IMG/VR virus record: IMGVR_UViG_3300024313_000009
Span: 1 to 54,894 of that record
Strand: one strand, 5' to 3'
DNA from: a virus
Lineage: Duplodnaviria > Caudoviricetes
Length of the DNA stretch: 54,894 nucleotides
Position numbers and translations under genes: made by a program. Shown here piece by piece: positions 6,943 through 51,500 of this stretch; positions within the stretch are counted from its first letter, which is position 1; each line of letters opens with the position of its first letter. The notes under the pieces were generated by a model. It had not been told where the DNA came from and made no database searches. It was given only the letters and a program-made list of their open reading frames with translations.

Positions 6943-6969
6943 TGAATAAATAAAAAAACAAAAGTATAC

Positions 6970-8334: not shown

Positions 8335-9240
8335 ATGGGAAAATTAACAACAAAGGATTTAAAAGATGATAATCTTAAAGGTACGCAATGGATTGGTATA
8401 GTTGAAAATACTGATGATGATATCTTTGAAGGCCGATGTAGGATTAGAGTTTTTGGTAAAATGGACCAGAGAGAAGATCCAGAAGATCCAAGTAGTGCTT
8501 ACATAATGCCAACTGAATCTTTACCTTGGGCAAGACCATCAGTAGCATCTTCAGGTGGAAGTAACAGTGGAAGTGGTACCTTTTCAGTACCTAAACTAGG
8601 CACGATATTAAGGATAACATTTGACAATGGTAATTATTATTCTCCTGTATACCATGAGTCACTATACCCTTCTGATGAGACTAAGGCGGAGATAGAGGCG
8701 GCTTATCCTAATTCACATGTATTAATATATGATACAGCATTTGGGTTAACAGGGGATCTACAATCTGGTGATCCTGAAGTTACTAACGAAAGGGAGGGGG
8801 AACATATTAAAGTTTTCTTTACAGAAGAAAAAGGCTTAATGATGGATTACACGACAACAGAAGGTCCAACAACAGTAAATATAAAACCTGATAATTCAGT
8901 TGAAATAATAAATGCAAATGGAGATTCAATTGTAATGCTTAATGATGGAAATATAACATTTACTCATTCTGCTCAGTTTACAATTAATAGTGGTGCTAAT
9001 ACTGAAATTAATTGTGAAGATGCAATAATTAATTGTACTAACACCGTTGTAAATCATGCCTCATCTATTGAATTAGGACAAGGTGCAGTTGAAAAGGTAG
9101 TACTAGGAGATACATTTATGGCTCTATTTAATAAGCATACTCACATTGGAAACTTAGGGGCACCGACATCTCCACCACCAGCAACCGGTAATGCAATGAC
9201 TGCAAAAGAATTAAGCCAAAAGCAAGTTAAAACTCTATAA
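8335..9240 (+). CDS. Baseplate central spike, gp5/gpV-like (OB fold, beta-helix, HxH apex; no lysozyme domain)
   Basis: WIGIVE...GRCRIRVFG...LPWARP...FSVPKLG..ITFDNGNYYSPVY is the gp5/Vgr OB signature; C-terminal KHTHIG resembles the metal-binding apex of gpV-type spikes. Confidence 0.85.
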   Translation: MGKLTTKDLKDDNLKGTQWIGIVENTDDDIFEGRCRIRVFGKMDQREDPEDPSSAYIMPTESLPWARPSVASSGGSNSGSGTFSVPKLGTILRITFDNGNYYSPVYHESLYPSDETKAEIEAAYPNSHVLIYDTAFGLTGDLQSGDPEVTNEREGEHIKVFFTEEKGLMMDYTTTEGPTTVNIKPDNSVEIINANGDSIVMLNDGNITFTHSAQFTINSGANTEINCEDAIINCTNTVVNHASSIELGQGAVEKVVLGDTFMALFNKHTHIGNLGAPTSPPPATGNAMTAKELSQKQVKTL

Positions 9241-9266: not shown

Positions 9267-9596
9267 ATGGCATTAGTAAAACCTGTATTAGATACCGCTC
9301 TAACAAATACATTAAATGCAGCATTTGCAGCAGCAATGACTGACTTCGTTACTGTTATTAAAGCTAGCCCTGCAACCGGAAACGATTCCGAGGCTATAAA
9401 TTTAACTGCTGCAATAGCATCATCGTCATTAGTATTTTCTAATTTAGCAGGACCCGGTATTTCTACTGCTGTCGATGCATACATAAGGTCACAAACATTA
9501 ATTGTGCCACCAGGTCAACTTGTAACAACCGCAGGTTCTGCTGTTGCTCAGGCTGGTGCAACATCCGCACCTTCACCACCAATTCCTGTTTTATAA
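9267..9596 (+). CDS. Small Ala-rich virion protein next to the spike gene
   Basis: 109 aa preceded by AATATATAA (9240-9248). Confidence 0.65.
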   Translation: MALVKPVLDTALTNTLNAAFAAAMTDFVTVIKASPATGNDSEAINLTAAIASSSLVFSNLAGPGISTAVDAYIRSQTLIVPPGQLVTTAGSAVAQAGATSAPSPPIPVL

Positions 9597-9598
9597 TC

Positions 9599-9627
9599 TT
9601 AAACTATTTAATATCTAAAGGTATAAT
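9599..9627 (+). promoter_or_regulatory. Putative early/middle promoter TTAAAC-N17-TATAAT upstream of the S1 gene
   Basis: TTAAAC 9599-9604, TATAAT 9622-9627; a late-type AATATATAA follows at 9647-9655. Confidence 0.55.
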
Positions 9628-9684
9628 AATTAAATCTAAACCGAGTAATATATAATCTATAATAACACTCTTAATAAAAAAATA

Positions 9685-10857
9685 ATGAACGAACAAGAAA
9701 TCACCATCCAATTAAGTGATGATCCATTTGACACTAAAGTAATTAAAGTTAAAGTACCTAAGGGAACTAAGTTAATGTCAACCGAGGCATATTCTGCTGA
9801 TGTGTTGGATATGTATGATATGAGCGATGAAGATGCTAAAAAGCTTCAAATGTCAGAAGAGAATAATAATTATATTACTCAAGCCGAGATTGCTTATATT
9901 AAAAAAGAAATACAAATTGTTGAAGGTGAAGAAAGAGAGGTCAAAACAGAGGCACTGGTTGACATATCTAGAAAAAATACAGCTGTATGTATTTTATCAA
10001 AAGAAGATCCGGATATAGTAGAACAATTAGAGGTTGGGATGATAGTAGATATTAAAGTTAAACATTCTAAACAAGGTACCTTATATGCTTCTATTAGTGA
10101 TGCATTAGACGAAGTTAAACGTAATGAAATTTATAATGCCATTGGAAATAAAACTATTGGGTTTACTGGTAAAGTAAAAGAACTTATTCATGGTGGTTAC
10201 TGGGTAGAAGTAGGCGGTGTTGAATGTTTTATGCCAGGTTCATTAGGCGGTTTAAATAAACTGCATAACTTTGAAAAATTAGTAGGTAAAGAAATTATCG
10301 TTATGCCTATAACTTATTCTAATGAAAAACAAACCATTGTCGTTTCCCATAGAGAATATCTAAGAACTATGATACCTTCTGCTGTGGAAAATCTTAGAGA
10401 AAATATTAAAGAGCATGTAACTGGGTTTGTTACAGGTGCAACTAAATTTGGTATATTTGCTGAATTTAACGATTGCTTAACCGGATTAATTCCTAAAAAT
10501 GAATTAGATGAATCTACATTAGAGAAGTTTAATAATAGAGATATTAAACCAGGTGATGAAATTGATTTTTGGACTAAAGAAATAATTTCGGAAAGAAAAA
10601 TAATACTTAGCCAAACCGGACCTAAGATAGATTTATGGGATGGTGCTGATGAGAAATACAAACCTATGATGGTCACTGAAGGTAAAGTTACTAAAGTTAC
10701 TAAGTATGGCGCATTTGTCGAATTAGAAAAAGGTATCAGTGGTCTTATTCATAAAACTAAACTTAAGAATACTGAACTTACAAAAGGCGACCTTGTAAAT
10801 ATTAAAATTGGTAGTGTGAATGTTAGTGATCGCAAGATTACAATGAACTTAGTATAA
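9685..10857 (+). CDS. rpsA: Phage-encoded ribosomal protein S1 homologue (about four S1/OB domains)
   Basis: Tandem S1 repeats: GKVKELIHGGYWVEVGGVECFMPGS (D2-like), GFVTGATKFGIFAEF..LTGLIPKNEL, and GKVTKVTKYGAFVELEKGISGLIH, plus a degenerate D1-like domain. Confidence 0.9.
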   Translation: MNEQEITIQLSDDPFDTKVIKVKVPKGTKLMSTEAYSADVLDMYDMSDEDAKKLQMSEENNNYITQAEIAYIKKEIQIVEGEEREVKTEALVDISRKNTAVCILSKEDPDIVEQLEVGMIVDIKVKHSKQGTLYASISDALDEVKRNEIYNAIGNKTIGFTGKVKELIHGGYWVEVGGVECFMPGSLGGLNKLHNFEKLVGKEIIVMPITYSNEKQTIVVSHREYLRTMIPSAVENLRENIKEHVTGFVTGATKFGIFAEFNDCLTGLIPKNELDESTLEKFNNRDIKPGDEIDFWTKEIISERKIILSQTGPKIDLWDGADEKYKPMMVTEGKVTKVTKYGAFVELEKGISGLIHKTKLKNTELTKGDLVNIKIGSVNVSDRKITMNLV

Positions 10858-10899: not shown

Positions 10900-12198
10900 A
10901 TGTATTCTAACGAACAACTAAATGCTATACATTCTTCAAAGATAGGTTTTGAATTTGAGTTCTTTTCAAACGAAAACCTTGATCTTACTAAAGATAGTTT
11001 AGCACAAACCTTAAACAAGTCAATTAGAGTAGAAGAAAAAGCACATAGTGACTTTATACCTACTCAAGATATTTTTAAATTAGAACCAGATAACTCCGGT
11101 GGTACTGGAATGATTGAGTTAGTAACCGGTCCACTACCTTTTGTTGAAGCCAAATTAGTTATGGCTAAAACTTTAAAATGGATTAGAGAAAACGGTAAGA
11201 CTAATGAAAGATGCTCTATTCATATAAACATTGCGTTTGATGGAAAAAAGTTAGGACCTATTGTTAATATGTCAAAATTAGACGTAGGTAAATTTGTACT
11301 TAACTTTGATGAAAACAAAGTATATGAAGCCTTCCCAAACAGAAGAGATTCTGTTTATGCAAAATCTATAAAGTTTATTGTACCTTTAAGTGGTATGACT
11401 CAACCTTCACCAGAAAAAAATCTTTGGAAAAACTATATGTTTGTCAAAGAGAAGTATTATGGTATTAATTTTGAAAAGCTACAAAAAGGTTATATTGAAT
11501 TTAGATATCTTGGTGGTGCTGATTATGAAAAGAGGTATTCTACAATACTTTCAATGACCGAACATTTTATTACTTCATTATATGAAACTTTAGTTAACCC
11601 AAAATATAATGAATCTGATTTAAAGGTTTTGGATAAGATTTTAGAAAAGCATAAAACTGTTATTGAATCTTACCGAACATATTCTTCATTTAAAGAAAAA
11701 TTTCCTAATGTTCATTTAATGGTTGATCTTCAAACATATGATCAGCTTATTGAAATGTATTACCCTAAAATTAGAGAAAAGATTTTTGATTTAATTACTA
11801 GGGCTGATATGAATGAAGGTTTAATCAATTACGATAGTGATACCGGTAGAATTCAGATTAAAGATGCTAAGTTAATGAGATGTTTTGAAATAAACGGTGT
11901 TGATATTGTTGATTCAGTTATCCAAGGAAATATAGTTAATTGTGATATCTTTGGTTGTGACCTTAAAAACGCGTCAGTATTTGAATCTAATTTATTTGGG
12001 GCTACTATAGCCGAAGATTGCAAAATAGAAGAATCATATGTTAGTAGAAATGTAATATGTGAAGATAGTTATGTATTTGGTAAAAGAGGCGTTTTTAGTG
12101 GTGAAATGGTTGGTGGTATTTTTAGACAAGGTAGAGCAACAGGGCTTGCGAGGTTTAGTGATAAAACTGAAGTAATTGAAATAGAAAAAATTAAATAA
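10900..12198 (+). CDS. Putative amidoligase (COOH-NH2 ligase, Amidoligase_2-like) with C-terminal beta-helix-like repeats
   Basis: Motifs in family order: IGFEFEF, EPDNS, IELVTGP, CSIHINI, KYYGIN, IEFRYLGG. The C-terminus has repeating I/V-x-D/N-S/C units. Confidence 0.8.
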   Translation: MYSNEQLNAIHSSKIGFEFEFFSNENLDLTKDSLAQTLNKSIRVEEKAHSDFIPTQDIFKLEPDNSGGTGMIELVTGPLPFVEAKLVMAKTLKWIRENGKTNERCSIHINIAFDGKKLGPIVNMSKLDVGKFVLNFDENKVYEAFPNRRDSVYAKSIKFIVPLSGMTQPSPEKNLWKNYMFVKEKYYGINFEKLQKGYIEFRYLGGADYEKRYSTILSMTEHFITSLYETLVNPKYNESDLKVLDKILEKHKTVIESYRTYSSFKEKFPNVHLMVDLQTYDQLIEMYYPKIREKIFDLITRADMNEGLINYDSDTGRIQIKDAKLMRCFEINGVDIVDSVIQGNIVNCDIFGCDLKNASVFESNLFGATIAEDCKIEESYVSRNVICEDSYVFGKRGVFSGEMVGGIFRQGRATGLARFSDKTEVIEIEKIK

Positions 12199-12202
12199 AG
12201 AT

Positions 12203-13054
12203 ATGTCAAATAAAAGTTGGTGTAACCCAGATTCACAGGAATGCTTAGACGCGCTAATCAAAGAAATTAATGATGACTTAACAGTAGGTTGCCAAATACC
12301 TTTTACAGTACCTAAAAAAGAGTTGGCTCATATTATTAATAGAGCCAAAGATTATTTTTATAAAATATATGAAGATAGTGTAGAAGAAATGTATATTGCA
12401 TTACCTAAGTCTGCTTGGTATGAAAAAGATTTTAGGCAAGGCGTTAGTCATAGTAACGGTAGTAATAAATTAACAGAGAAGGATGTAAACAATCCTAGGG
12501 GTGTTGTAAAAATGCCTTCAACCGTTTGGGCAGTTAATAATGTATTTCAAATAAATGGATTCTCTGGTGAAGATGGTGGCTTTGGTGATAACTCATTTTC
12601 TGCAGGTGATCCGGATTTTTCATTAGATAAGTTTATTTACTCTGATGTGTATGGTGCTGGTATTGGATCCGAAGAATTAATGTACTATGTAATTAATTCT
12701 AAATTTATAGATAATGCAAGACAAGTTTTACAGGCTCAGATATCATACAATTATAATAGACTAACTAAAAAGTTTAGATTTATGGGGGAGTTACCAAATA
12801 AAGGTGCATGCATATTTCAGGTTTATAATACTATTCCTGATTGTGATCTTTTTCAAGATGAGGCTTTTATAAGATACTGTATAGGTATGGCTAAAATACA
12901 ATTATCTAGAATATTAGGTACATTTCAATTTAACTTACCTGGTAATATTACTATTAATTATGATTTGATATCTAGTGAGGGTAGAGAAGAAGTTGATGCT
13001 ATCGTTGAAGAAATAAAAGGTGATGAAGGTGTTGATTATTTTTTCACAGGATAA
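12203..13054 (+). CDS. Neck protein, T4 gp13-like
   Basis: YNYNRLTKKF and AKIQLSRILGTFQFNLPGNITINYD match the gp13 C-terminal LPGGVTxN pattern. Confidence 0.75.
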   Translation: MSNKSWCNPDSQECLDALIKEINDDLTVGCQIPFTVPKKELAHIINRAKDYFYKIYEDSVEEMYIALPKSAWYEKDFRQGVSHSNGSNKLTEKDVNNPRGVVKMPSTVWAVNNVFQINGFSGEDGGFGDNSFSAGDPDFSLDKFIYSDVYGAGIGSEELMYYVINSKFIDNARQVLQAQISYNYNRLTKKFRFMGELPNKGACIFQVYNTIPDCDLFQDEAFIRYCIGMAKIQLSRILGTFQFNLPGNITINYDLISSEGREEVDAIVEEIKGDEGVDYFFTG

Positions 13055-13496: not shown

Positions 13497-15353
13497 ATGT
13501 CATTTTTCAGTAAAACAAGAATAAAAGCAACAGAGTTATTTTTTGATGCTTTTCAATATTTACAGCGCCAGTATGATCAAGCCGGTGAAGTGTTTACGCC
13601 TGCATCACCATTTGGGCAAATTCTTACCGTGGTTGCCAACTTAGGGGAACTTATTTTATTTTACATTGAAGCGGTTGGGACAGAGCTTAACATTAGCAGA
13701 GCAAGAAATATAGAATCAATATACGGTTTATCAAGACTAACTGGGCATGATCCTACTAGAGGAATATCTGCGCAAGGTATAATTGGACTAAGATTAAATA
13801 CATCTGCAGCCACATTAGTTGAAGGCGACTTTGTACAAATATTAAATTATGCTGAGCTAGAAATTGGACAAAATGGTCTAAGTTATTTTATTAAGTTTGA
13901 TAGTGATTATATAAGATTAGAAAAAACAACAAGGTCATTTGTTAATGTTCAATTAATACAAGGTATAATTGAAGATCAAAAATTTACCGGAACTGGTGAA
14001 CCTTTACAAAGCTACAATTTAACTACCAAAGACCCAACAGATCAATATATGGTTGATGTACATGTAGATGGTAAATTATGGAAAAATGTTAATTCTTTAT
14101 ATGACATGAATAATGGCGAAGAATGTGTTATGATAAAAACTAGTGTTAATGGTGGCTTAACTTGTTTCTTTGGAAATAATCAATTTGGCCAACCTCCTGC
14201 ATTAGGATCTATAATAAAAGTTACTTATGTAAAGACCAGAGGATCTGCTGGTAATATTGGTGGAAAGAATTTAGATATGAAATTTAAAACCCCAGGAACA
14301 GATTCTACAGGAGAAGAAATAGATCTTAATGAAGTGTTATCTTTAAACATTGTTCGTAATCCTATATTTGGTTCAGATAGCGAAGACCCTACATTTACAA
14401 GGTTAATTGCGCCATACCAAAGTAATTCATTTGTATTAGCTAATCCTAATAATTATATTTACTATCTAAGTAAGTATGATTACTTTTCTTTTGTAGACGC
14501 ATATAATACAAAGGATGATCAATATTTAGATGATGACAATATTATATACTTATTTTTAATACCGGATATTGCTAAAAAGATAACAAGTGATAAAGATTAT
14601 TTTAGTGTTCCTGTAGATGAATTCTCAATGACACCTGACGAAAAAGAAATGGTATATGAAATTCTAAATGAAAGTGGCCGACAGATAGTTACTGCTGAAG
14701 TTAGAATTAATGATCCTATAATTAAAAGGTATGCATTAAATATTGTTTTGAGATATGTTGAAGGATTTGATAAAGATGAAATTCATGCATCCATTAGAGA
14801 ACAACTTAGTACTTATTTTATATACATAAACAGGAGAGATAGAATTCCAAGATCCGACTTAATTTCAATTATTGAAAACGTAGATGGTGTAGATTCTGTT
14901 AATGTATTTTTTATATCCGAAGCTAATGAAAAGGCTATGGCCGATGGGTTTTATGAAATTCCTGTTTATGGCACAGATCCTGTAACAGATCAAAAAGTAT
15001 TAATAGAAACCAAGAAGGTAATGCTTAAAGGTGATGAGGATCCTCAAATAGGATTAGATGAATTTGGTGATGTAATTATTGGCCCTGAAGATTTGGCTAT
15101 TATAAGAGGTGGTTGGGATGATAGGAATGGAACTTTTTATGAAAGCATACCTAATAAGAATACAATAAGTTCTCTTAATATTTTCTTTAAAGGTACTATT
15201 CCAAATAACCTTTATAATAAAACTCAACAGTCTAAGTTTCAAGATTTAAAAAGAACTAGAGGAACAACTATTGCAACATCAGGAAACTCAAGAAGTACAA
15301 ATACTGGAAGGTTAAAAGATAACCCTACATTAAAAGCAATACAAGGAAAGTAA
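13497..15353 (+). CDS. Baseplate wedge protein, gp6-like
   Basis: ELNISRARNIESIYGLSRLTGHDP, FFGNNQFGQPP and YVKTRGSAGN are gp6 signatures; follows gp25. Confidence 0.85.
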   Translation: MSFFSKTRIKATELFFDAFQYLQRQYDQAGEVFTPASPFGQILTVVANLGELILFYIEAVGTELNISRARNIESIYGLSRLTGHDPTRGISAQGIIGLRLNTSAATLVEGDFVQILNYAELEIGQNGLSYFIKFDSDYIRLEKTTRSFVNVQLIQGIIEDQKFTGTGEPLQSYNLTTKDPTDQYMVDVHVDGKLWKNVNSLYDMNNGEECVMIKTSVNGGLTCFFGNNQFGQPPALGSIIKVTYVKTRGSAGNIGGKNLDMKFKTPGTDSTGEEIDLNEVLSLNIVRNPIFGSDSEDPTFTRLIAPYQSNSFVLANPNNYIYYLSKYDYFSFVDAYNTKDDQYLDDDNIIYLFLIPDIAKKITSDKDYFSVPVDEFSMTPDEKEMVYEILNESGRQIVTAEVRINDPIIKRYALNIVLRYVEGFDKDEIHASIREQLSTYFIYINRRDRIPRSDLISIIENVDGVDSVNVFFISEANEKAMADGFYEIPVYGTDPVTDQKVLIETKKVMLKGDEDPQIGLDEFGDVIIGPEDLAIIRGGWDDRNGTFYESIPNKNTISSLNIFFKGTIPNNLYNKTQQSKFQDLKRTRGTTIATSGNSRSTNTGRLKDNPTLKAIQGK

Positions 15354-15354
15354 T

Positions 15355-15624
15355 ATGAATAAATTTACAGAAAAAAGAAAAGGTATGCCTAGTGTTTATA
15401 AAGCAACATACGAAGAAGGATGGGAATTAAAAAACTTAGGTAATGACTATAATGAAAATTTAATGAGAAATTCATTTTCAAATTATATGTTCAGAAACGA
15501 GAGACTCTCAACCTTTTTAGATTCTTACTTAAAACCAATTATGACATTTTGGATTAATAAAGTAAAATATCTTAGAATTTATTATAACTTCGGTGTACCT
15601 AAAGATTACCAAAAAATAAATTAA
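15355..15624 (+). CDS. Small baseplate-region protein
   Basis: 89 aa, packed 1 nt from each neighbour. Confidence 0.7.
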   Translation: MNKFTEKRKGMPSVYKATYEEGWELKNLGNDYNENLMRNSFSNYMFRNERLSTFLDSYLKPIMTFWINKVKYLRIYYNFGVPKDYQKIN

Positions 15625-15625
15625 G

Positions 15626-38414: not shown

Positions 38415-38520
38415 TACATAGAATACCACTAAATACTTTAATGACTAGTAATTACATACTTCTCTTTCTTTAATTTAGTATATTTTATATATAGAAACCA
38501 GAACTTAGTTTCAGAATATT

Positions 38521-38787
38521 ATGATAAAAGCGATAAAAAATAGAATATTTATTAAAAAAGATGAATTACCAGAAAAAATCGGTAACATATATGTCCCAAA
38601 AACAGAAGGTCAGTATGCACCACCATATTCAGGTACTATCATTTCTGTAGGCGGTGACATAGAAGATCCGGATTATAAAGTAGGATCACGAGTACTATTC
38701 CACGACTTAGCAGGCACAGAGTTTAAATATGATGGCAATACCATATTCAGCATCAGAGAAAATGATGTAACCGCTATTATACAATAA
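38521..38787 (+). CDS. groES: GroES-like co-chaperonin
   Basis: IKAIKNRIFIK...GNIYVP...GTIISVG...KVGSRVLF...GTE...IRENDVTAII is the Cpn10 pattern. Confidence 0.9.
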   Translation: MIKAIKNRIFIKKDELPEKIGNIYVPKTEGQYAPPYSGTIISVGGDIEDPDYKVGSRVLFHDLAGTEFKYDGNTIFSIRENDVTAIIQ

Positions 38788-38793
38788 AAAAGT

Positions 38794-38834
38794 TCTATTT
38801 AGACTGAAACTAAATAGAGATATGAATATATAAT
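38794..38834 (+). promoter_or_regulatory. Hairpin plus promoter motifs upstream of gene 32
   Basis: TCTATTTAG/CTAAATAGA 9-bp stem (38794-38818); TGAAAC (38805-38810)-N18-TATAAT (38829-38834) overlapping GAATATATAA (38824-38833). Confidence 0.55.
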
Positions 38835-38872
38835 AAACAAAGGAACTGATATTATTCAGCGACTTATAAACA

Positions 38873-38987
38873 GGCATATAACAAGGCAAAGTATATTGGC
38901 AATACCCGGGCAAATTAAAAATAGGCAGAGCTGCGTTATATCCACAATTAATAACAAAGTAAAAATAAAAAGGCAATTAAAATGGCA
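38873..38987 (+). repeat. Seven GGCA tetramers in the gene 32 leader, mostly about 12 nt apart
   Basis: GGCA at 38873, 38885, 38898, 38909, 38924, 38972 and 38984 (the last overlaps ATG). Confidence 0.75.
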
Positions 38988-39902
38988 AATGAATTCGACA
39001 TTTTCAGTGTAAGCGTCAAGGACCTTGACACTGGAGACAGACCCGCACCAAGTAGCGATCTGTACACACCAAAACCCGACCAGGGAACTGACGGTACTTA
39101 CCGTTCACTAATTAGGTTTCTTCCTAATGTAAAAAACCCACGTAAACCTTTCGTTCGTAAATATGTCTATTGGTTAGAAGATAGAGATGGCAACGGCTTC
39201 TACGTAGATTCACCTTCAACAGTTGGAGAGAAATGTGCAGTACAAGACATGTTCTTTAAACTTAGAAATTCTGAATCTGCTGTAGATAAAAAGATGTCAG
39301 AAGGACTGAAGCGTAGAGAAGTATTTTATGCATTAGTGCAAATCGTAAAAGATCCACAGAACAGAGATTTAGAAGGACAAGTTAAAATCATGAAATTTGG
39401 TTATAAGATTAAAACCAAAATTGATGAGGAATTAAATCCACAATTTGATGAACCTACTCAAGTATTCGATCCGTTTGAAGGAAAGAATTTTGAATTAGTA
39501 ATTTCTAAGAAAGGTGGTTATCCTAACTATGATTCTTGTAAATTTCAAGGAAGTAAATCCGCTATGACGATTAACGAAGAAGCAGTAACTTCTGATGACG
39601 CAGGTAGAACTGCAATTCTTGATTTTATTAAGGATGCACCAGAGTTAGCAAACTTTGATTACCGTCCTTGGAATGATGAACAGCGAAATAAAGTAATGGG
39701 TGTACTTTCTCAATTTAGTAACCCAGGATCTTCTATTGAAACTGTTACTAAAAAGCAAGACGCACCAGAACCAGTAAAAGTAGCAGCCGCTGTATCGGCG
39801 GTAAATGAAGCTGCAGGATCTGCTGCACCAACTGCAACTAAAACTGAAGATTCTTCTAAAGGAGATGATTTCGATGATTTCATTAATGGTTTAGATCTTT
39901 AA
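38982..39902 (+). CDS. 32: Single-stranded DNA-binding protein, T4 gp32-like
   Basis: IRFLP, VKDPQNRDLEGQV..KFG.KI, FDPFEGKNF.L and GYPNYD.CKF motifs, plus acidic tail DDFDDFINGLDL. Confidence 0.93.
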   Translation: MANEFDIFSVSVKDLDTGDRPAPSSDLYTPKPDQGTDGTYRSLIRFLPNVKNPRKPFVRKYVYWLEDRDGNGFYVDSPSTVGEKCAVQDMFFKLRNSESAVDKKMSEGLKRREVFYALVQIVKDPQNRDLEGQVKIMKFGYKIKTKIDEELNPQFDEPTQVFDPFEGKNFELVISKKGGYPNYDSCKFQGSKSAMTINEEAVTSDDAGRTAILDFIKDAPELANFDYRPWNDEQRNKVMGVLSQFSNPGSSIETVTKKQDAPEPVKVAAAVSAVNEAAGSAAPTATKTEDSSKGDDFDDFINGLDL

Positions 39903-41192: not shown

Positions 41193-41641
41193 TGGCATTT
41201 GATGATACACAAATAAAAGAGGCTAATGAACAATTAGAACTTAGATTAGGTTCTGATAGGAATGATTGGAAAGCAAAAATCAAAGATCTTGTTTCTAAGC
41301 TAAAAAACATGAATGAATTAGCAGAGTGCCAAGTAAGAATGCTTTCATACCGGCAAATCTTATTAGACAAAGTAACTGATTTTAAGACCACCATATATAA
41401 AAGGAATGCTACTTGGGACAGGTATTATAAGAACCAATATCGAGAGTATTCAGTTAACTATGATGTTAAACTAACTAATGGCGAAAAGCATCAATTTATA
41501 AAAGCCGATCTGTCTTCTTTAAAAACTCAGATTGACATGTTACAATCACATATAGATTATTACTATGAATGTATTAAGACTTTAGATAACATGGCATTTG
41601 CAATAAGAAACAGAATAAACTTAGATGATAAGGAATTTTAA
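41192..41641 (+). CDS. uvsY: Recombination mediator, UvsY-like
   Basis: 149-aa helical protein ending IKAD...IKTLDNMAFAIRNRI, immediately upstream of uvsW. Confidence 0.75.
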   Translation: MAFDDTQIKEANEQLELRLGSDRNDWKAKIKDLVSKLKNMNELAECQVRMLSYRQILLDKVTDFKTTIYKRNATWDRYYKNQYREYSVNYDVKLTNGEKHQFIKADLSSLKTQIDMLQSHIDYYYECIKTLDNMAFAIRNRINLDDKEF

Positions 41642-43143
41642 TGGAACTATCTCTGTCTGAAAATAAAAAGTTTTTAGTAATTGATTCATGTACCGAATTG
41701 GAATATGAACAGTTAAAATCTAGTCTTACTAAGAAAATAGAAGGTTGGCGGTTCCACCCTTTAGTAAAGAAAAAGGTATGGGATGGTAATATTTCGTTTA
41801 TTAAAAGAAATAAAATTCCGGCAGGGTTATGGAAAGAAGTTATAGACATCTGTAAACAATATGATTATCAATTTACACTAAATGGCATAACTGATATTTT
41901 TGATACTTCGATAGATGAAGATATGTTTAGAGGTTGGGTAGATGAATTTTTTGCAAAGTCTGAAATTAAACCTAGAGATTATCAGATTGATGCTGCAATT
42001 AAAATTTTAAAATATAGAAGGTGTTTAGCTGAATTGGCAACGTCTGCAGGTAAAACTTTAATTTCATTTATGGTGGTTGCTTATATGATGGAACAATTAG
42101 GCAAAAAGAAAATCTTAATGATCGTGCCTAATGTAAGTTTAGTAGTTCAGGCGAGTGGAGATTTTGAAGAATATAATAAAGGCAGAGTACCTATTAAGAT
42201 TCAACAAATTTATGCAGGAGTTAAACTAAGAAAGAGTTCTAATATAGTTATAGGTACTTATCAATCATTAACTAAAAAAGACGAGGAATACTTTAGCCAA
42301 TTTGATGCAGTATTTGTAGATGAAACTCATAAAGCAAAAGCAAATTCAATCCAAAAGATAATGGATAAATGTTGGCACTGTGATTATAGATTTGGTTTAA
42401 GTGGTACTATACCTAAAAGAGGAACTGTAAATAGACTTAGTTTAATGTCGGCAATGGGCCCACTAGTAACTCAAGTAAAGGCTGCTCATTTACAGGAAGA
42501 AGGTCATATTGCAAAATGTAAAGTTTTACAGATCCACATGGAATATGCAACCGATGCACAAAAAGAAGCATTCTCATCTCTGTCTAAAAATCCGTATGAT
42601 AGACAAAAGCTATTTAGTTTAGAACAAAACTTTATTAACGAAAGTGAAAAGAGACTAGACTTCGTTTGTCAGGTAATTAAAAAATCAACATCCAACTCAT
42701 TAGTCTTATTTCATAAAATAGCATACGGTGAAAAACTATATCAAAAGCTTAGAACAATAACAGATAAAAAAGTCTATTATGTTGACGGTTCTGTTAAGTC
42801 TGATTTTAGAGAAGAGTTTAAAAAGAGAATGGAAAAGAATGATGATGTTATTATTGTAGCATCATACGGAACATTCTCAACAGGTATTTCAATTAAAAAC
42901 ATTCATAACATTTTCTTTACTGAATCATTTAAATCAGAAGTAATTATCAGACAGTCAATAGGTAGAGGTTTAAGAAAACATGAAGCCAAAGATGTTGTAA
43001 AAATATATGACTTCATTGACGATTTTAGATATAAAGTAGATGATCATGACTGGGTAAATTATATCTATAGACACGGTATGGAAAGAAGAAAAATATACAA
43101 GGAAGAAAAGTTTCCTTTTGAGGTACAAAATGTAAGGTATTAA
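41641..43143 (+). CDS. uvsW: SF2 DNA helicase UvsW
   Basis: PRDYQ, ATSAGKT, DETH, GLSGT, SYGTFSTGISIKNIHN and QSIGRGLR. Confidence 0.95.
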   Translation: MELSLSENKKFLVIDSCTELEYEQLKSSLTKKIEGWRFHPLVKKKVWDGNISFIKRNKIPAGLWKEVIDICKQYDYQFTLNGITDIFDTSIDEDMFRGWVDEFFAKSEIKPRDYQIDAAIKILKYRRCLAELATSAGKTLISFMVVAYMMEQLGKKKILMIVPNVSLVVQASGDFEEYNKGRVPIKIQQIYAGVKLRKSSNIVIGTYQSLTKKDEEYFSQFDAVFVDETHKAKANSIQKIMDKCWHCDYRFGLSGTIPKRGTVNRLSLMSAMGPLVTQVKAAHLQEEGHIAKCKVLQIHMEYATDAQKEAFSSLSKNPYDRQKLFSLEQNFINESEKRLDFVCQVIKKSTSNSLVLFHKIAYGEKLYQKLRTITDKKVYYVDGSVKSDFREEFKKRMEKNDDVIIVASYGTFSTGISIKNIHNIFFTESFKSEVIIRQSIGRGLRKHEAKDVVKIYDFIDDFRYKVDDHDWVNYIYRHGMERRKIYKEEKFPFEVQNVRY

Positions 43144-50090: not shown

Positions 50091-50129
50091 TATTAATTTA
50101 ATAAGAGTGAATAAATAAAAAAAGTGTAC

Positions 50130-51500
50130 ATGGATAATCTAAAAAATATACAAGATTTTATAACAGAAAAAAGAGTTACTGTTAAGAGGAGATATACTGA
50201 AAAGCATCCAGCTAAAAATGTATCTACTGCTGCCAGGGTTCGTTCTGCTATTTTAGATGCTGTTGCTGATGGACATTTAACTGAAGATGAGGTTAACAAT
50301 ATCTTATCTGAAATAAAGGCTCACAAAAGATGGCTTAAAAGAAATGTAGGATTATTTAATATCAGTGAAGATGAGACTGGGATTAAGAGATATTCCTTAT
50401 CTCCTTATGGTCATAGAGTAAGAACTGCAACTGCTCCACTTAATGAAGCTTTAAAAGTTCCTCATAAAGAACAAGGTAAGAAAAAGGTTAATATGTTTGT
50501 TGGTAGATTCCAACCTTTTACATTAGGTCATGTTAAAGTATTTGAAAAAATGTATAAAGAAAATGGAAAACCTGTAGTTGTATTTTTAGTTAGAGGAAAA
50601 AACAACGATCCTGAGAAAAGACCGTTTGATGAAGAAATGCAACAAGCAATGTTTGCTAAGATGGCAAAACAATATCCATTTTTAGAAACTGCTATTGTAG
50701 TTCCTAATGGTTCAATTGACACGATGTTTGCAGCAGCAAGGCCAGCATATGAACCTGTGATGTGGGGATATGGAACGGATAGAAAAAAATCATACGGTGC
50801 AATGATTGACAAACAATCATACCGAGATCAATTAGGAGTAGATCCTGATTTTAAAGGTTTTGAGATTTTTAGAACTGATGATAACATTTCAGCATCTAAA
50901 GTTCGTAATGCATTAAAGATAGATGATGAAAAGACTTTTAAGAAAATGACTCCTAAAAGCATACATAGTTTTTATAAACCATTACAAAATATATTAGAAC
51001 CAATAAAAGAAAATAACAATATGAAAAATTTAAAATCACTAACAAGTTTTAGCATTGACGAATCTTTGAATGAAGGTAAAAAAGCTAAAGCAAAAAACCC
51101 TAATAAAGTAAACACTATAGATGTTGATTTATCTGGAGACGATTCAGATATAATGGATGCAATTAAATCATTTAATCTAAAGGTTAAATCTAACGGAGCC
51201 AATAAAGGAACTGGGTATGATATGACAGGTAAAAATAAAGATATTCTTGATTATTTACAAAGTGACTATTATGCATTAGATGCTAGAGATATTGAGGATA
51301 TGTTTCCAGAATTATTAGAAGGTGAAATCAATGAAGAGTATATTGAATTAATGCCTGGGATGGAAGAAGGGTTAGAACAAATAGTAGAAGGTTGGATAGA
51401 ATGGAAAGGCGGCCCTGCAACAGAAAAGACTGACATTGCTCCAGCAAGAAAAGAATTATTAAACTTTTGTACAACTTATTTAAAAAAGAATATTAAGTAA
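50130..51500 (+). CDS. HxGH-superfamily nucleotidyltransferase (NMNAT/cytidylyltransferase-like) with wHTH-like N-terminus
   Basis: VGRFQPFTLGH and ISASKVR motifs. ATG at 50130 is the likelier start than GTG at 50124. Confidence 0.8.
   Translation: MDNLKNIQDFITEKRVTVKRRYTEKHPAKNVSTAARVRSAILDAVADGHLTEDEVNNILSEIKAHKRWLKRNVGLFNISEDETGIKRYSLSPYGHRVRTATAPLNEALKVPHKEQGKKKVNMFVGRFQPFTLGHVKVFEKMYKENGKPVVVFLVRGKNNDPEKRPFDEEMQQAMFAKMAKQYPFLETAIVVPNGSIDTMFAAARPAYEPVMWGYGTDRKKSYGAMIDKQSYRDQLGVDPDFKGFEIFRTDDNISASKVRNALKIDDEKTFKKMTPKSIHSFYKPLQNILEPIKENNNMKNLKSLTSFSIDESLNEGKKAKAKNPNKVNTIDVDLSGDDSDIMDAIKSFNLKVKSNGANKGTGYDMTGKNKDILDYLQSDYYALDARDIEDMFPELLEGEINEEYIELMPGMEEGLEQIVEGWIEWKGGPATEKTDIAPARKELLNFCTTYLKKNIK

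Follow-up and report, generated by a model that had tools for sequence, protein, structure and literature searches.

Several reports of phage-encoded ribosomal proteins bear on the gene considered here. Mizuno et al. (2019) mentioned that previous metagenomic work had hinted at viral bS1, and they did not consider S1-domain proteins further because these are ambiguous (PMC6375957). Al-Shayeb et al. (2020) described huge-phage proteins carrying as many as six S1 domains, which could not be confirmed as 'true' ribosomal protein S1 (rpS1); according to that account, the huge phages with a possible rpS1 rarely have Shine-Dalgarno (SD) sequences, and their proteins were proposed to take part in initiation 'on or off the ribosome' (PMC7162821). 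A bS1 of a jumbo cyanophage is reported in a 2026 paper (PMC13157829). For bS21, Chen et al. (2022) described a gene of Bacteroidetes phages whose place is within a conserved block of structural genes and whose expression goes along with theirs, and they proposed that its product substitutes into host ribosomes late in infection (PMC9723584). Here, we analyze an S1 homolog encoded by the IMG/VR virus record IMGVR_UViG_3300024313_000009, a linear fragment of 54,894 bases with a CheckV completeness estimate of 23% (the entire record is referred to as the window). A first-pass annotation of this DNA had proposed that the phage swaps S1 to bias ribosomes towards its own mRNAs. As described in the 2020 report, phage rpS1 homologs and their link with missing SD sequences have been published, and the S1-bias hypothesis is already in print; what is added here is the resolution of one S1 family and not a new class. 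Our working hypothesis, to which we give about an even chance, is that the protein is a phage-lineage paralog of bS1 with four domains that is expressed late and acts as a substitute for, or competitor of, host bS1 on the 30S subunit.

Domain architecture and candidate uS2-docking features

The boundaries of the S1 gene in the first-pass annotation were confirmed, as was its count of about four S1 domains. An AlphaFold2 model of the S1 homolog built on a 42-sequence alignment (mean predicted local distance difference test (pLDDT) score 85.6; predicted TM-score 0.61) contains four OB domains and two linker helices, and the alignment with the rpsA profile NF004952 is co-linear with bS1 D1–D4 (query 45–387 against profile 18–371 of 580). 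The Pfam S1 model (PF00575) is passed with 69.9 bits against a gathering threshold of 22 and matches two stretches, and the top 11 NCBIfam matches are all rpsA equivalog models. Among solved structures the best match is E. coli bS1 (E 3.3e-27, query 115–364 against residues 62–313), and the top Foldseek matches to the model are bS1 on the 30S subunit (9gut_B, E 1.1e-23); the target-normalized TM-score is 0.71 for the D1–D2 structure 9guq_B and 0.64–0.71 for D1–D2 fragments of ribosome structures. We also looked at whether the domains group with non-ribosomal S1 proteins, a result that the first-pass annotation had named as speaking against its proposal, and found that they do not: CvfD/GSP13/Ygs, PNPase, RNase R, Tex, and NusA matched only aa 323–388, i.e. 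the last domain, their models scored 23–52 bits and stayed under their cut-offs, and their structures ranked behind bS1 in Foldseek.

To assign the individual domains, we used six domain hidden Markov models (HMMs) made from E. coli bS1 and 11 other six-domain relatives (12 cellular bS1 in total) and scored 42 family members. The second domain of the query reached 55.7 bits with the D2 HMM and at most 10.1 bits with those of D1 and D3–D6; D2 was the best HMM for this domain in 42 of 42 members (29–58 bits), and it is the most conserved region of the protein (61% mean identity in the diverse set). By sequence, the second domain is specifically a bS1 D2. For the first domain, 23 of the 42 members matched the D1 HMM best with at least 5 bits, and three matched another HMM best. 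The model gives this domain a long hairpin, and an insertion of ~13 residues (aa 75–87; window 9907–9945) that extends the first D1 hairpin is present in the alignment only in the closest relatives of the query. The third and fourth domains (mean identities of 58% and 43% within the diverse set) scored 28.1 and 46.9 bits with D6, 20.2 and 44.9 with D4, 20.1 and 38.8 with D5, and 16.4 and 34.9 with D3, respectively, and D6 was the best HMM for the third domain in 25 of 42 and for the fourth in 33 of 42 members. By sequence, both are generic canonical RNA-binding S1 domains and not specifically D3 and D4. Thus, of the domain assignments in the first-pass annotation, D1/D2-like stands, whereas D3/D4-like does not hold beyond the canonical S1 type. 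No counterparts of D5 and D6 were found in the alignment to E. coli bS1, which stops at residue 313–347, in the HMM scores, or in the model; the protein has four S1 domains as opposed to the six of the Gram-negative type.

The extended N-terminus noted in the first-pass annotation is real and comprises 62 residues ahead of D1 as compared to ~20 in E. coli. It is modeled as a family-specific β-hairpin followed by a region that aligns with the uS2-binding helix of bS1. In E. coli bS1, F5 and F9 of the N-terminal helix are described as stacking on F32 of uS2, and D39 and K43 of D1 as bridging to the uS2 zinc pocket (PMC4288201). We counted conservation of the aligned positions in two sets, one of 42 diverse and one of 115 close homologs. 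Y44, which aligns with F9, is conserved as Y in 32 of the 42 diverse and in all 115 close homologs; D93, which aligns with D39, is D in 32/42 and 106/115; and K97, which aligns with K43, is K or R in 38/42 and K in 115/115. In the hairpin, P14, F15, P25, and G27 are kept in all 115 close homologs and K29 in 113, and P14 and K29 are each kept in 34 of the 42 diverse homologs. The helix has the form [LM]xxxLY, which is also found in several Bacteroidota bS1.

As the first-pass annotation had suggested, we modeled the protein with uS2, using aa 1–150 with their own alignment and the uS2 of a Bacteroidota genome (G013), a sister of a Flavobacteriaceae metagenome-assembled genome (MAG) that was chosen because the uS2 of the MAG has ambiguous residues. 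The predicted complex scored 0.79 while the best of three controls, which included a replaced uS2, scored 0.32, a difference to be read as likeness only because an S1–uS2 complex has been solved. Of 80 solved complexes, 58 reach the mark used for such predictions, as do 2 of 110 mismatched pairs; these counts are rough in this case, where the protein's own alignment was used. At least 97% of the contacts agree among runs, and the partner pLDDT is at least 83. In the predicted interface, residues 24–32 of the hairpin, residues 36–37, 40–41, 43–44, 46, 51, 54–55, and 58–59 of the helix region, and the D1 loop 95–101 contact uS2, with the loop facing uS2 residues 14–20 and 204–209. From sequence and model together, the S1 homolog probably docks on the ribosome. 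The docking half of the S1-swap idea is therefore supported in silico by the D2 signature, the helix, the D39 and K43 equivalents, and the uS2 prediction, whereas replacement of host bS1 and a bias of the ribosome are what we infer beyond it.

The same conserved residues and uS2 prediction would also suit a dominant-negative blocker that takes the uS2 site, excludes the six-domain host bS1, and shuts off those host mRNAs for which the complete RNA-binding array is required, without itself actively recruiting phage mRNAs. In its favor are also the missing D5 and D6 and the extra N-terminal hairpin, which widens the predicted interface. However, the two canonical S1 domains are under constraint, as their mean identities in the diverse set indicate, which argues that RNA binding is part of the function; moreover, E. 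coli S1 without D5–D6 is still functional and, as reported, supports growth, with D1–D3 keeping 30S binding, mRNA binding, and melting (PMC3858243). We regard a blocker as rather improbable.

Relatives of the S1 homolog and its place in the baseplate module

Of 5,430 candidates in a word-index search, 2,817 proteins reached E ≤1e-5; the best 120 of these share 66–100% identity with the query, are 335–390 aa long, and come largely from marine samples, on contigs of up to 215 kb. An exhaustive search of cluster representatives gave 5,311 matches at E ≤0.001, of which 133 were at ≤1e-30. In the phage collection, LR756500.1 (462 kb) alone covers at least 80% of the query (41% identity over 96%), with partial matches in other huge phages and in Lak phages. 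Some relatives carry the JGI automatic name 'ribosomal protein S1', which would fit a recent capture from a host or a decaying passenger without a role of its own. Against this, IMG/VR has at least 578 stretches in which relatives are encoded, the gene order around S1 is kept at 41% identity (see below), and the median ratio of non-synonymous to synonymous substitution rates (dN/dS) of S1 is 0.129 (102 pairs, dS 0.05–1). This is close to the value of the hub gene (0.155) and less strict than those of the wedge gene (0.072) and of the amidoligase-like gene (0.063), which ranks among the most constrained in the block. The S1 gene is under purifying selection.

The phylogeny against cellular rpsA, which the first-pass annotation had listed as a check, set the family apart from cellular bS1 and did not join it to any sampled host lineage. 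Cluster look-ups for 20 of the nearest cellular or unnamed relatives gave organism names for two, MAGs of Wallbacteria and Elusimicrobiota, and thus no donor lineage. In D1–D2 trees (IQ-TREE quick search, LG+C20, without bootstraps), a branch with a Shimodaira–Hasegawa-like approximate likelihood ratio (SH-aLRT) support of 100 separates the 44 family rows, together with 8 unnamed rows (~405 aa), from the 74 remaining rows. The latter are 26 Bacillota, 25 Bacteroidota, 2 unnamed proteins, and 21 further bacteria, E. coli among them. The split holds without Bacillota (120 rows) and with Bacillota (126 rows). The 80 named non-Bacteroidota loci were thinned for these trees by leaving out every second locus (120-row tree) or three in four (126-row tree), and the bS1 of Cyanobacteria and Actinomycetota lie outside the sampling; phage context was checked for the clade of the query, LR756500.1, and one MAG contig, while the other rows are counted as family by similarity and length. 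Because of this separation, the gene is not recently captured from a sampled host lineage. With both trees placing the family away from the sampled cellular bS1, recent host capture was rejected, and to the capture-or-passenger explanation as a whole we give next to no credence.

A possible trace of an older relationship lies ahead of the anchoring helix, where 7 of the 44 family rows and 2 of 10 unnamed rows carry a motif F-x-W-x-x-[FYW]. It is also present in 3 of the 25 Bacteroidota bS1, as compared to 0 of 81 other bacterial bS1. The three Bacteroidota bS1 with the motif are those nearest the Flavobacteriaceae MAG. At this site (aa 14–22; window 9724–9750) the query keeps PFD only, and the carriers include L066, P0131, and P0146. 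These sequences hint at an old link to Flavobacteriaceae.

The gene lies inside a baseplate module, as the first-pass annotation had stated: upstream is a hub-like gene, and a wedge gene closes the conserved block (Table 1). The hub is found upstream of S1 in 58 of 61 IMG/VR loci (57–86% identity), with the three misses at contig ends, and the amidoligase-like gene is found downstream in 60 of 61, the single miss again being a contig end. LR756500.1 has the same gene order around S1. A scan of genome contigs gave a single relative, on the 57.8-kb contig PAUJ01000008.1 of a Flavobacteriaceae MAG (L064/L066), in which S1, the amidoligase-like gene, g12203, g13112, and the wedge gene follow in the same order with 40–46% identity. 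We read this contig as phage because its gene order is the phage's own; it is probably a binned phage contig and, therefore, weak evidence for the host. The Atlas clusters of the amidoligase-like gene are 100% viral, partly with PF12224 and some with pentapeptide repeats; a functional tie of this gene to S1 is a guess.

Table 1 Features of the S1 locus and recurrent upstream motif in the window
Feature	Position	Strand	Details
Baseplate hub-like gene	8335..9240	+	phrog_430, E 3.8e-13
Small Ala/Ser-rich open reading frame	9267–9596		Between hub and S1 spacer
Upstream spacer	9597..9684	+	88 nt; two conserved A/T-rich elements, A-rich leader
GGTATAAT	9620..9627	+	−10-like element ('early' promoter of the first-pass annotation)
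AATATATAA	9647..9655	+	Recurrent gene-proximal motif, late-promoter-like
S1 homolog coding sequence	9685..10857	+	ATG start, 390 aa, stop codon included
Family-specific N-terminal β-hairpin	aa 1–30; 9685..9774	+	PFD ... VPxGxK; model strands 2–9, 17–24
Anchoring-helix region	aa 31–62; 9775..9870	+	Helices 37–42, 48–58; aligned with uS2-binding bS1 helix
D1-like OB domain	aa 63–136; 9871..10092	+	Long inserted hairpin; strands 63–79, 82–93, 99–103, 120–127, 133–136
D2, bS1-specific second domain	aa 160–221; 10162..10347	+	D2 HMM and model
Third OB domain, canonical S1 RNA-binding type	aa 244–309; 10414..10611	+	PF00575 stretch and model
Fourth OB domain, canonical S1 RNA-binding type	aa 330–390; 10672..10854	+	Best PF00575 stretch 329–387
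Viral amidoligase-like gene	10900..12198	+	PF12224, E 9e-4, below cut-off
phrog_211-like gene	12203–13054		
Baseplate wedge gene	13497..15353	+	phrog_219, E 5.6e-21; closes conserved block
AATATATAA copies	1419, 9240, 9647, 10875, 13087, 30233, 37348, 38825, 46610, 53973	+	

The position of the gene between hub and wedge also raises the idea that S1 is packed with the tail or baseplate, delivered at infection, and primes translation of the first phage mRNAs. The deeply conserved position between hub and wedge and the promoter-like motif common to structural genes (see below) are the only points in its favor. By contrast, the fold is wholly that of soluble bS1 without a structural-protein domain, a PHROGs search with the S1 protein returned 0 families and hence 0 tail families, and the S1 homologs of four other huge phages (LR745206, LR756501, LR756504, and Lak-B2) have none of these neighbors at E ≤1e-3. 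We consider a virion-carried protein very unlikely.

Upstream motifs, leaders, and the surrounding fragment

The first-pass annotation had placed both an early- and a late-type promoter at the gene. The late-type element belongs to a class that is real and conserved. All 10 copies of AATATATAA in the window are on the + strand, and 9 of the 10 touch intergenic DNA, which makes up 4.4% of the window; eight of these nine lie 13–29 nt ahead of a start codon and the ninth 148 nt. Ahead of S1, 31 of the 34 distinct upstream regions of relatives have ATATATAA. Based on its sequence and distribution, the AATATATAA class is likely a phage promoter class, and we take the motif to resemble T4 late promoters. 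Because the ATATATAA class is common to structural genes, co-expression of S1 with the structural genes is suggested.

The early-type element fared less well. GGTATAAT is not over-represented in the window (8 copies, a count that is attained in 9 of 100 shuffles, as compared to 4.13 expected). Only 4 of the 34 related upstream regions have it in exact form, although a GTATAAY-like block persists at this place, and a consensus scan found no −35 partner for it. In the spacer 9597..9684, neither a sigma-70-type two-hexamer site nor a terminator-like site was found; around the gene, the sigma-70 two-hexamer scan gave 24 sites against a shuffle mean of 29.0, and the terminator scan gave 1 site against 1.7. 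The words 'early' and 'late' themselves express an interpretation of these motifs and not an observed timing. A further motif, AATAAATAAAAA, occurs at 6945, 25640, 34398, and 50110, in 4 of 4 cases on the + strand, intergenic, and 2–13 nt before a start codon; from its sequence and position it may be a leader or promoter element.

The statement that genes throughout the window lack SD sequences held up in that SD-like 4-mers (GGAG/GAGG/AGGA at −20 to −4) are not enriched and precede 3 of 39 starts (background 10.3%). The leaders are A-rich, with A as the most frequent base at positions −14 to −5 (20–30 of the 39 starts at each position, as compared to 36.7% A overall).

The fragment belongs to a large T4-like myovirus, because hub and wedge baseplate genes are followed by a gp32-like gene and a DNA helicase. 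The long open reading frames (ORFs) are all on the + strand, no terminal repeats and, in a tRNA scan, no tRNA were found in the window, and a 20-kb part of the window had no megablast match in the phage collection. A gp32-like single-stranded DNA-binding protein (38982–39902), a DNA helicase (41641–43143), and a cytidylyltransferase-like protein (50124–51500) indicate that the replication module comes after the tail genes. Two spacers, 15354–15625 (272 nt) and 38415–38981 (567 nt), are without a + strand ORF of at least 90 aa.

Proposed role and comparison with known systems

Our working hypothesis of a late substitute or competitor can be laid out as follows. In a host that is probably a marine member of the Bacteroidota, S1 would be transcribed with the baseplate and tail genes from the ATATATAA-type promoter, and because of this shared transcription it would act during bulk synthesis of structural proteins. 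The N-terminal helix and D1, aided by the family-specific hairpin, would dock at the bS1 site on the 30S subunit of the host, with uS2 as the contact; D2 and the two canonical S1 domains would hold single-stranded, A-rich leaders without SD sequences; and the phage S1 would add to or displace host bS1 at this stage. That the protein binds 30S subunits, competes with host bS1, prefers phage mRNAs, and acts late are predictions of the hypothesis that we infer from architecture, conservation, and motifs. Purifying selection on the gene, the gene order kept down to 41% identity, the A-rich leaders without SD enrichment, the reported growth of E. coli with S1 lacking D5–D6, and the parallel case of phage bS21 also speak for it.

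Several points weigh against it. The family sits, by its sequence, on its own long branch outside all sampled cellular bS1, and the query misses the rpsA cut-offs (NF004952 129.7 of 524 bits, TIGR00717 121.5 of 577, NF005208 118.8 of 368, and NF000907 140 of 624). The D1 HMM gives a weak 3.6 bits in the query, and in 16 of the 42 family members no HMM reaches 5 bits for the first domain. V40, which aligns with E. coli F5, occupies a position that is V, L, A, or M and is F in 2 of 42 homologs, while F5A as well as F9A is reported to abolish binding of E. coli S1 (PMC4288201). The uS2 in our prediction is a stand-in for that of the real host and, because an S1–uS2 complex is already solved, passing the mark may reflect likeness to that complex. 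Contigs from four metatranscriptome runs of seawater RNA libraries span S1 and its neighbors at ≥99% identity, which would fit the hypothesis; yet DNA may be present in these libraries, and transcription, ends, strand, level, and timing are not readable from them. Finally, the literature searched contained no experimental work on phage S1.

Some of these points would fit a factor that works off the ribosome, either free or as a subunit of a phage enzyme, with D1–D2 binding a phage partner and the S1 domains chaperoning, protecting, or presenting phage RNAs. There is a precedent in Qβ replicase, which is described as using the D1–D2 surface of S1 including D39 and K43 (PMC4288201); because the D1 surface serves this enzyme too, its conservation is no proof of ribosome docking. 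The distance of the family from cellular bS1, with scores under every rpsA cut-off, and the amidoligase-like gene as constant neighbor point the same way. Nevertheless, conservation includes the anchoring helix with its Tyr, the form of this helix is like the Bacteroidota type (xxLY), the uS2 interface is predicted with 0.79 as opposed to 0.32 for the uS2-replaced control, and no candidate partner was identified. We hold an off-ribosome factor to be unlikely.

A bolder form of the substitute-or-competitor hypothesis, possible but in our view doubtful, is that the family is an old, virus-only bS1 lineage with a larger grip on uS2 and a shorter RNA-binding arm that, made together with the baseplate, displaces host bS1 late and creates phage-specialized ribosomes. 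The larger grip would consist of the N-terminal hairpin and the Tyr-type anchoring helix; a few family members have the motif F-x-W-x-x-[FY] in common with the N-terminal extension of some Flavobacteriaceae bS1. In SD-independent Bacteroidota, ribosomes specialized in this way would favor leaders that are short, unstructured, and A-rich, and the amidoligase-like gene might modify a component of the same process. These ideas matter because bS1 is a prime suspect for how Bacteroidota choose start sites without SD pairing, and the S1 of this abundant marine phage family, with its docking features intact and only two RNA-binding domains, is a natural minimal variant. Should this S1 indeed enter ribosomes in place of host bS1, there would be, next to phage bS21, a second example of how phages refit the platform for initiation in SD-independent hosts.

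Compared to bacterial bS1 (E. coli P0AG67), the phage protein has the same order of N-terminal anchoring helix, D1, D2, and canonical S1 domains, and it has the D2 signature GGxxV..G...F[LM]PGS and equivalents of F9, D39, and K43. It differs in having four domains and not six, ~30 extra hairpin residues at the N-terminus, and an aliphatic residue at the F5 position; in addition, its scores amount to only about one fourth of the curated cut-offs for rpsA, and its long branch is separate from all sampled cellular bS1. The four-domain S1 of Bacillota (NF005208/PRK06676 and the S1 part of NF000907) is equal in domain number and similar in length, and the profile scores are comparable (118.8 and 140 bits); however, the 26 Bacillota proteins fall with cellular bS1 and not with the phage family in the D1–D2 tree.

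The 'possible rpS1' of huge phages, as described by Al-Shayeb et al. (PMC7162821), is likewise a protein with multiple S1 domains in large phages whose genes lack SD sequences, and LR756500.1, which holds the closest database relative with the same neighbors, is one of those genomes; the family described here may be among the rpS1 candidates in the supplements of that report. For an S1 lineage of roughly 215–240-kb marine genomes, the present analysis resolves the identity of D1 and D2, the residues equivalent to those used in docking, the conserved position among the baseplate genes, and the branch on which the family stands apart. Phage bS21, as reported by Chen et al. (PMC9723584), is alike in that an initiation-related ribosomal protein is encoded in the structural block of large phages with SD-independent hosts. 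It is a different ribosomal protein, and bS21 is near host sequences whereas the phage S1 is far from sampled bS1.

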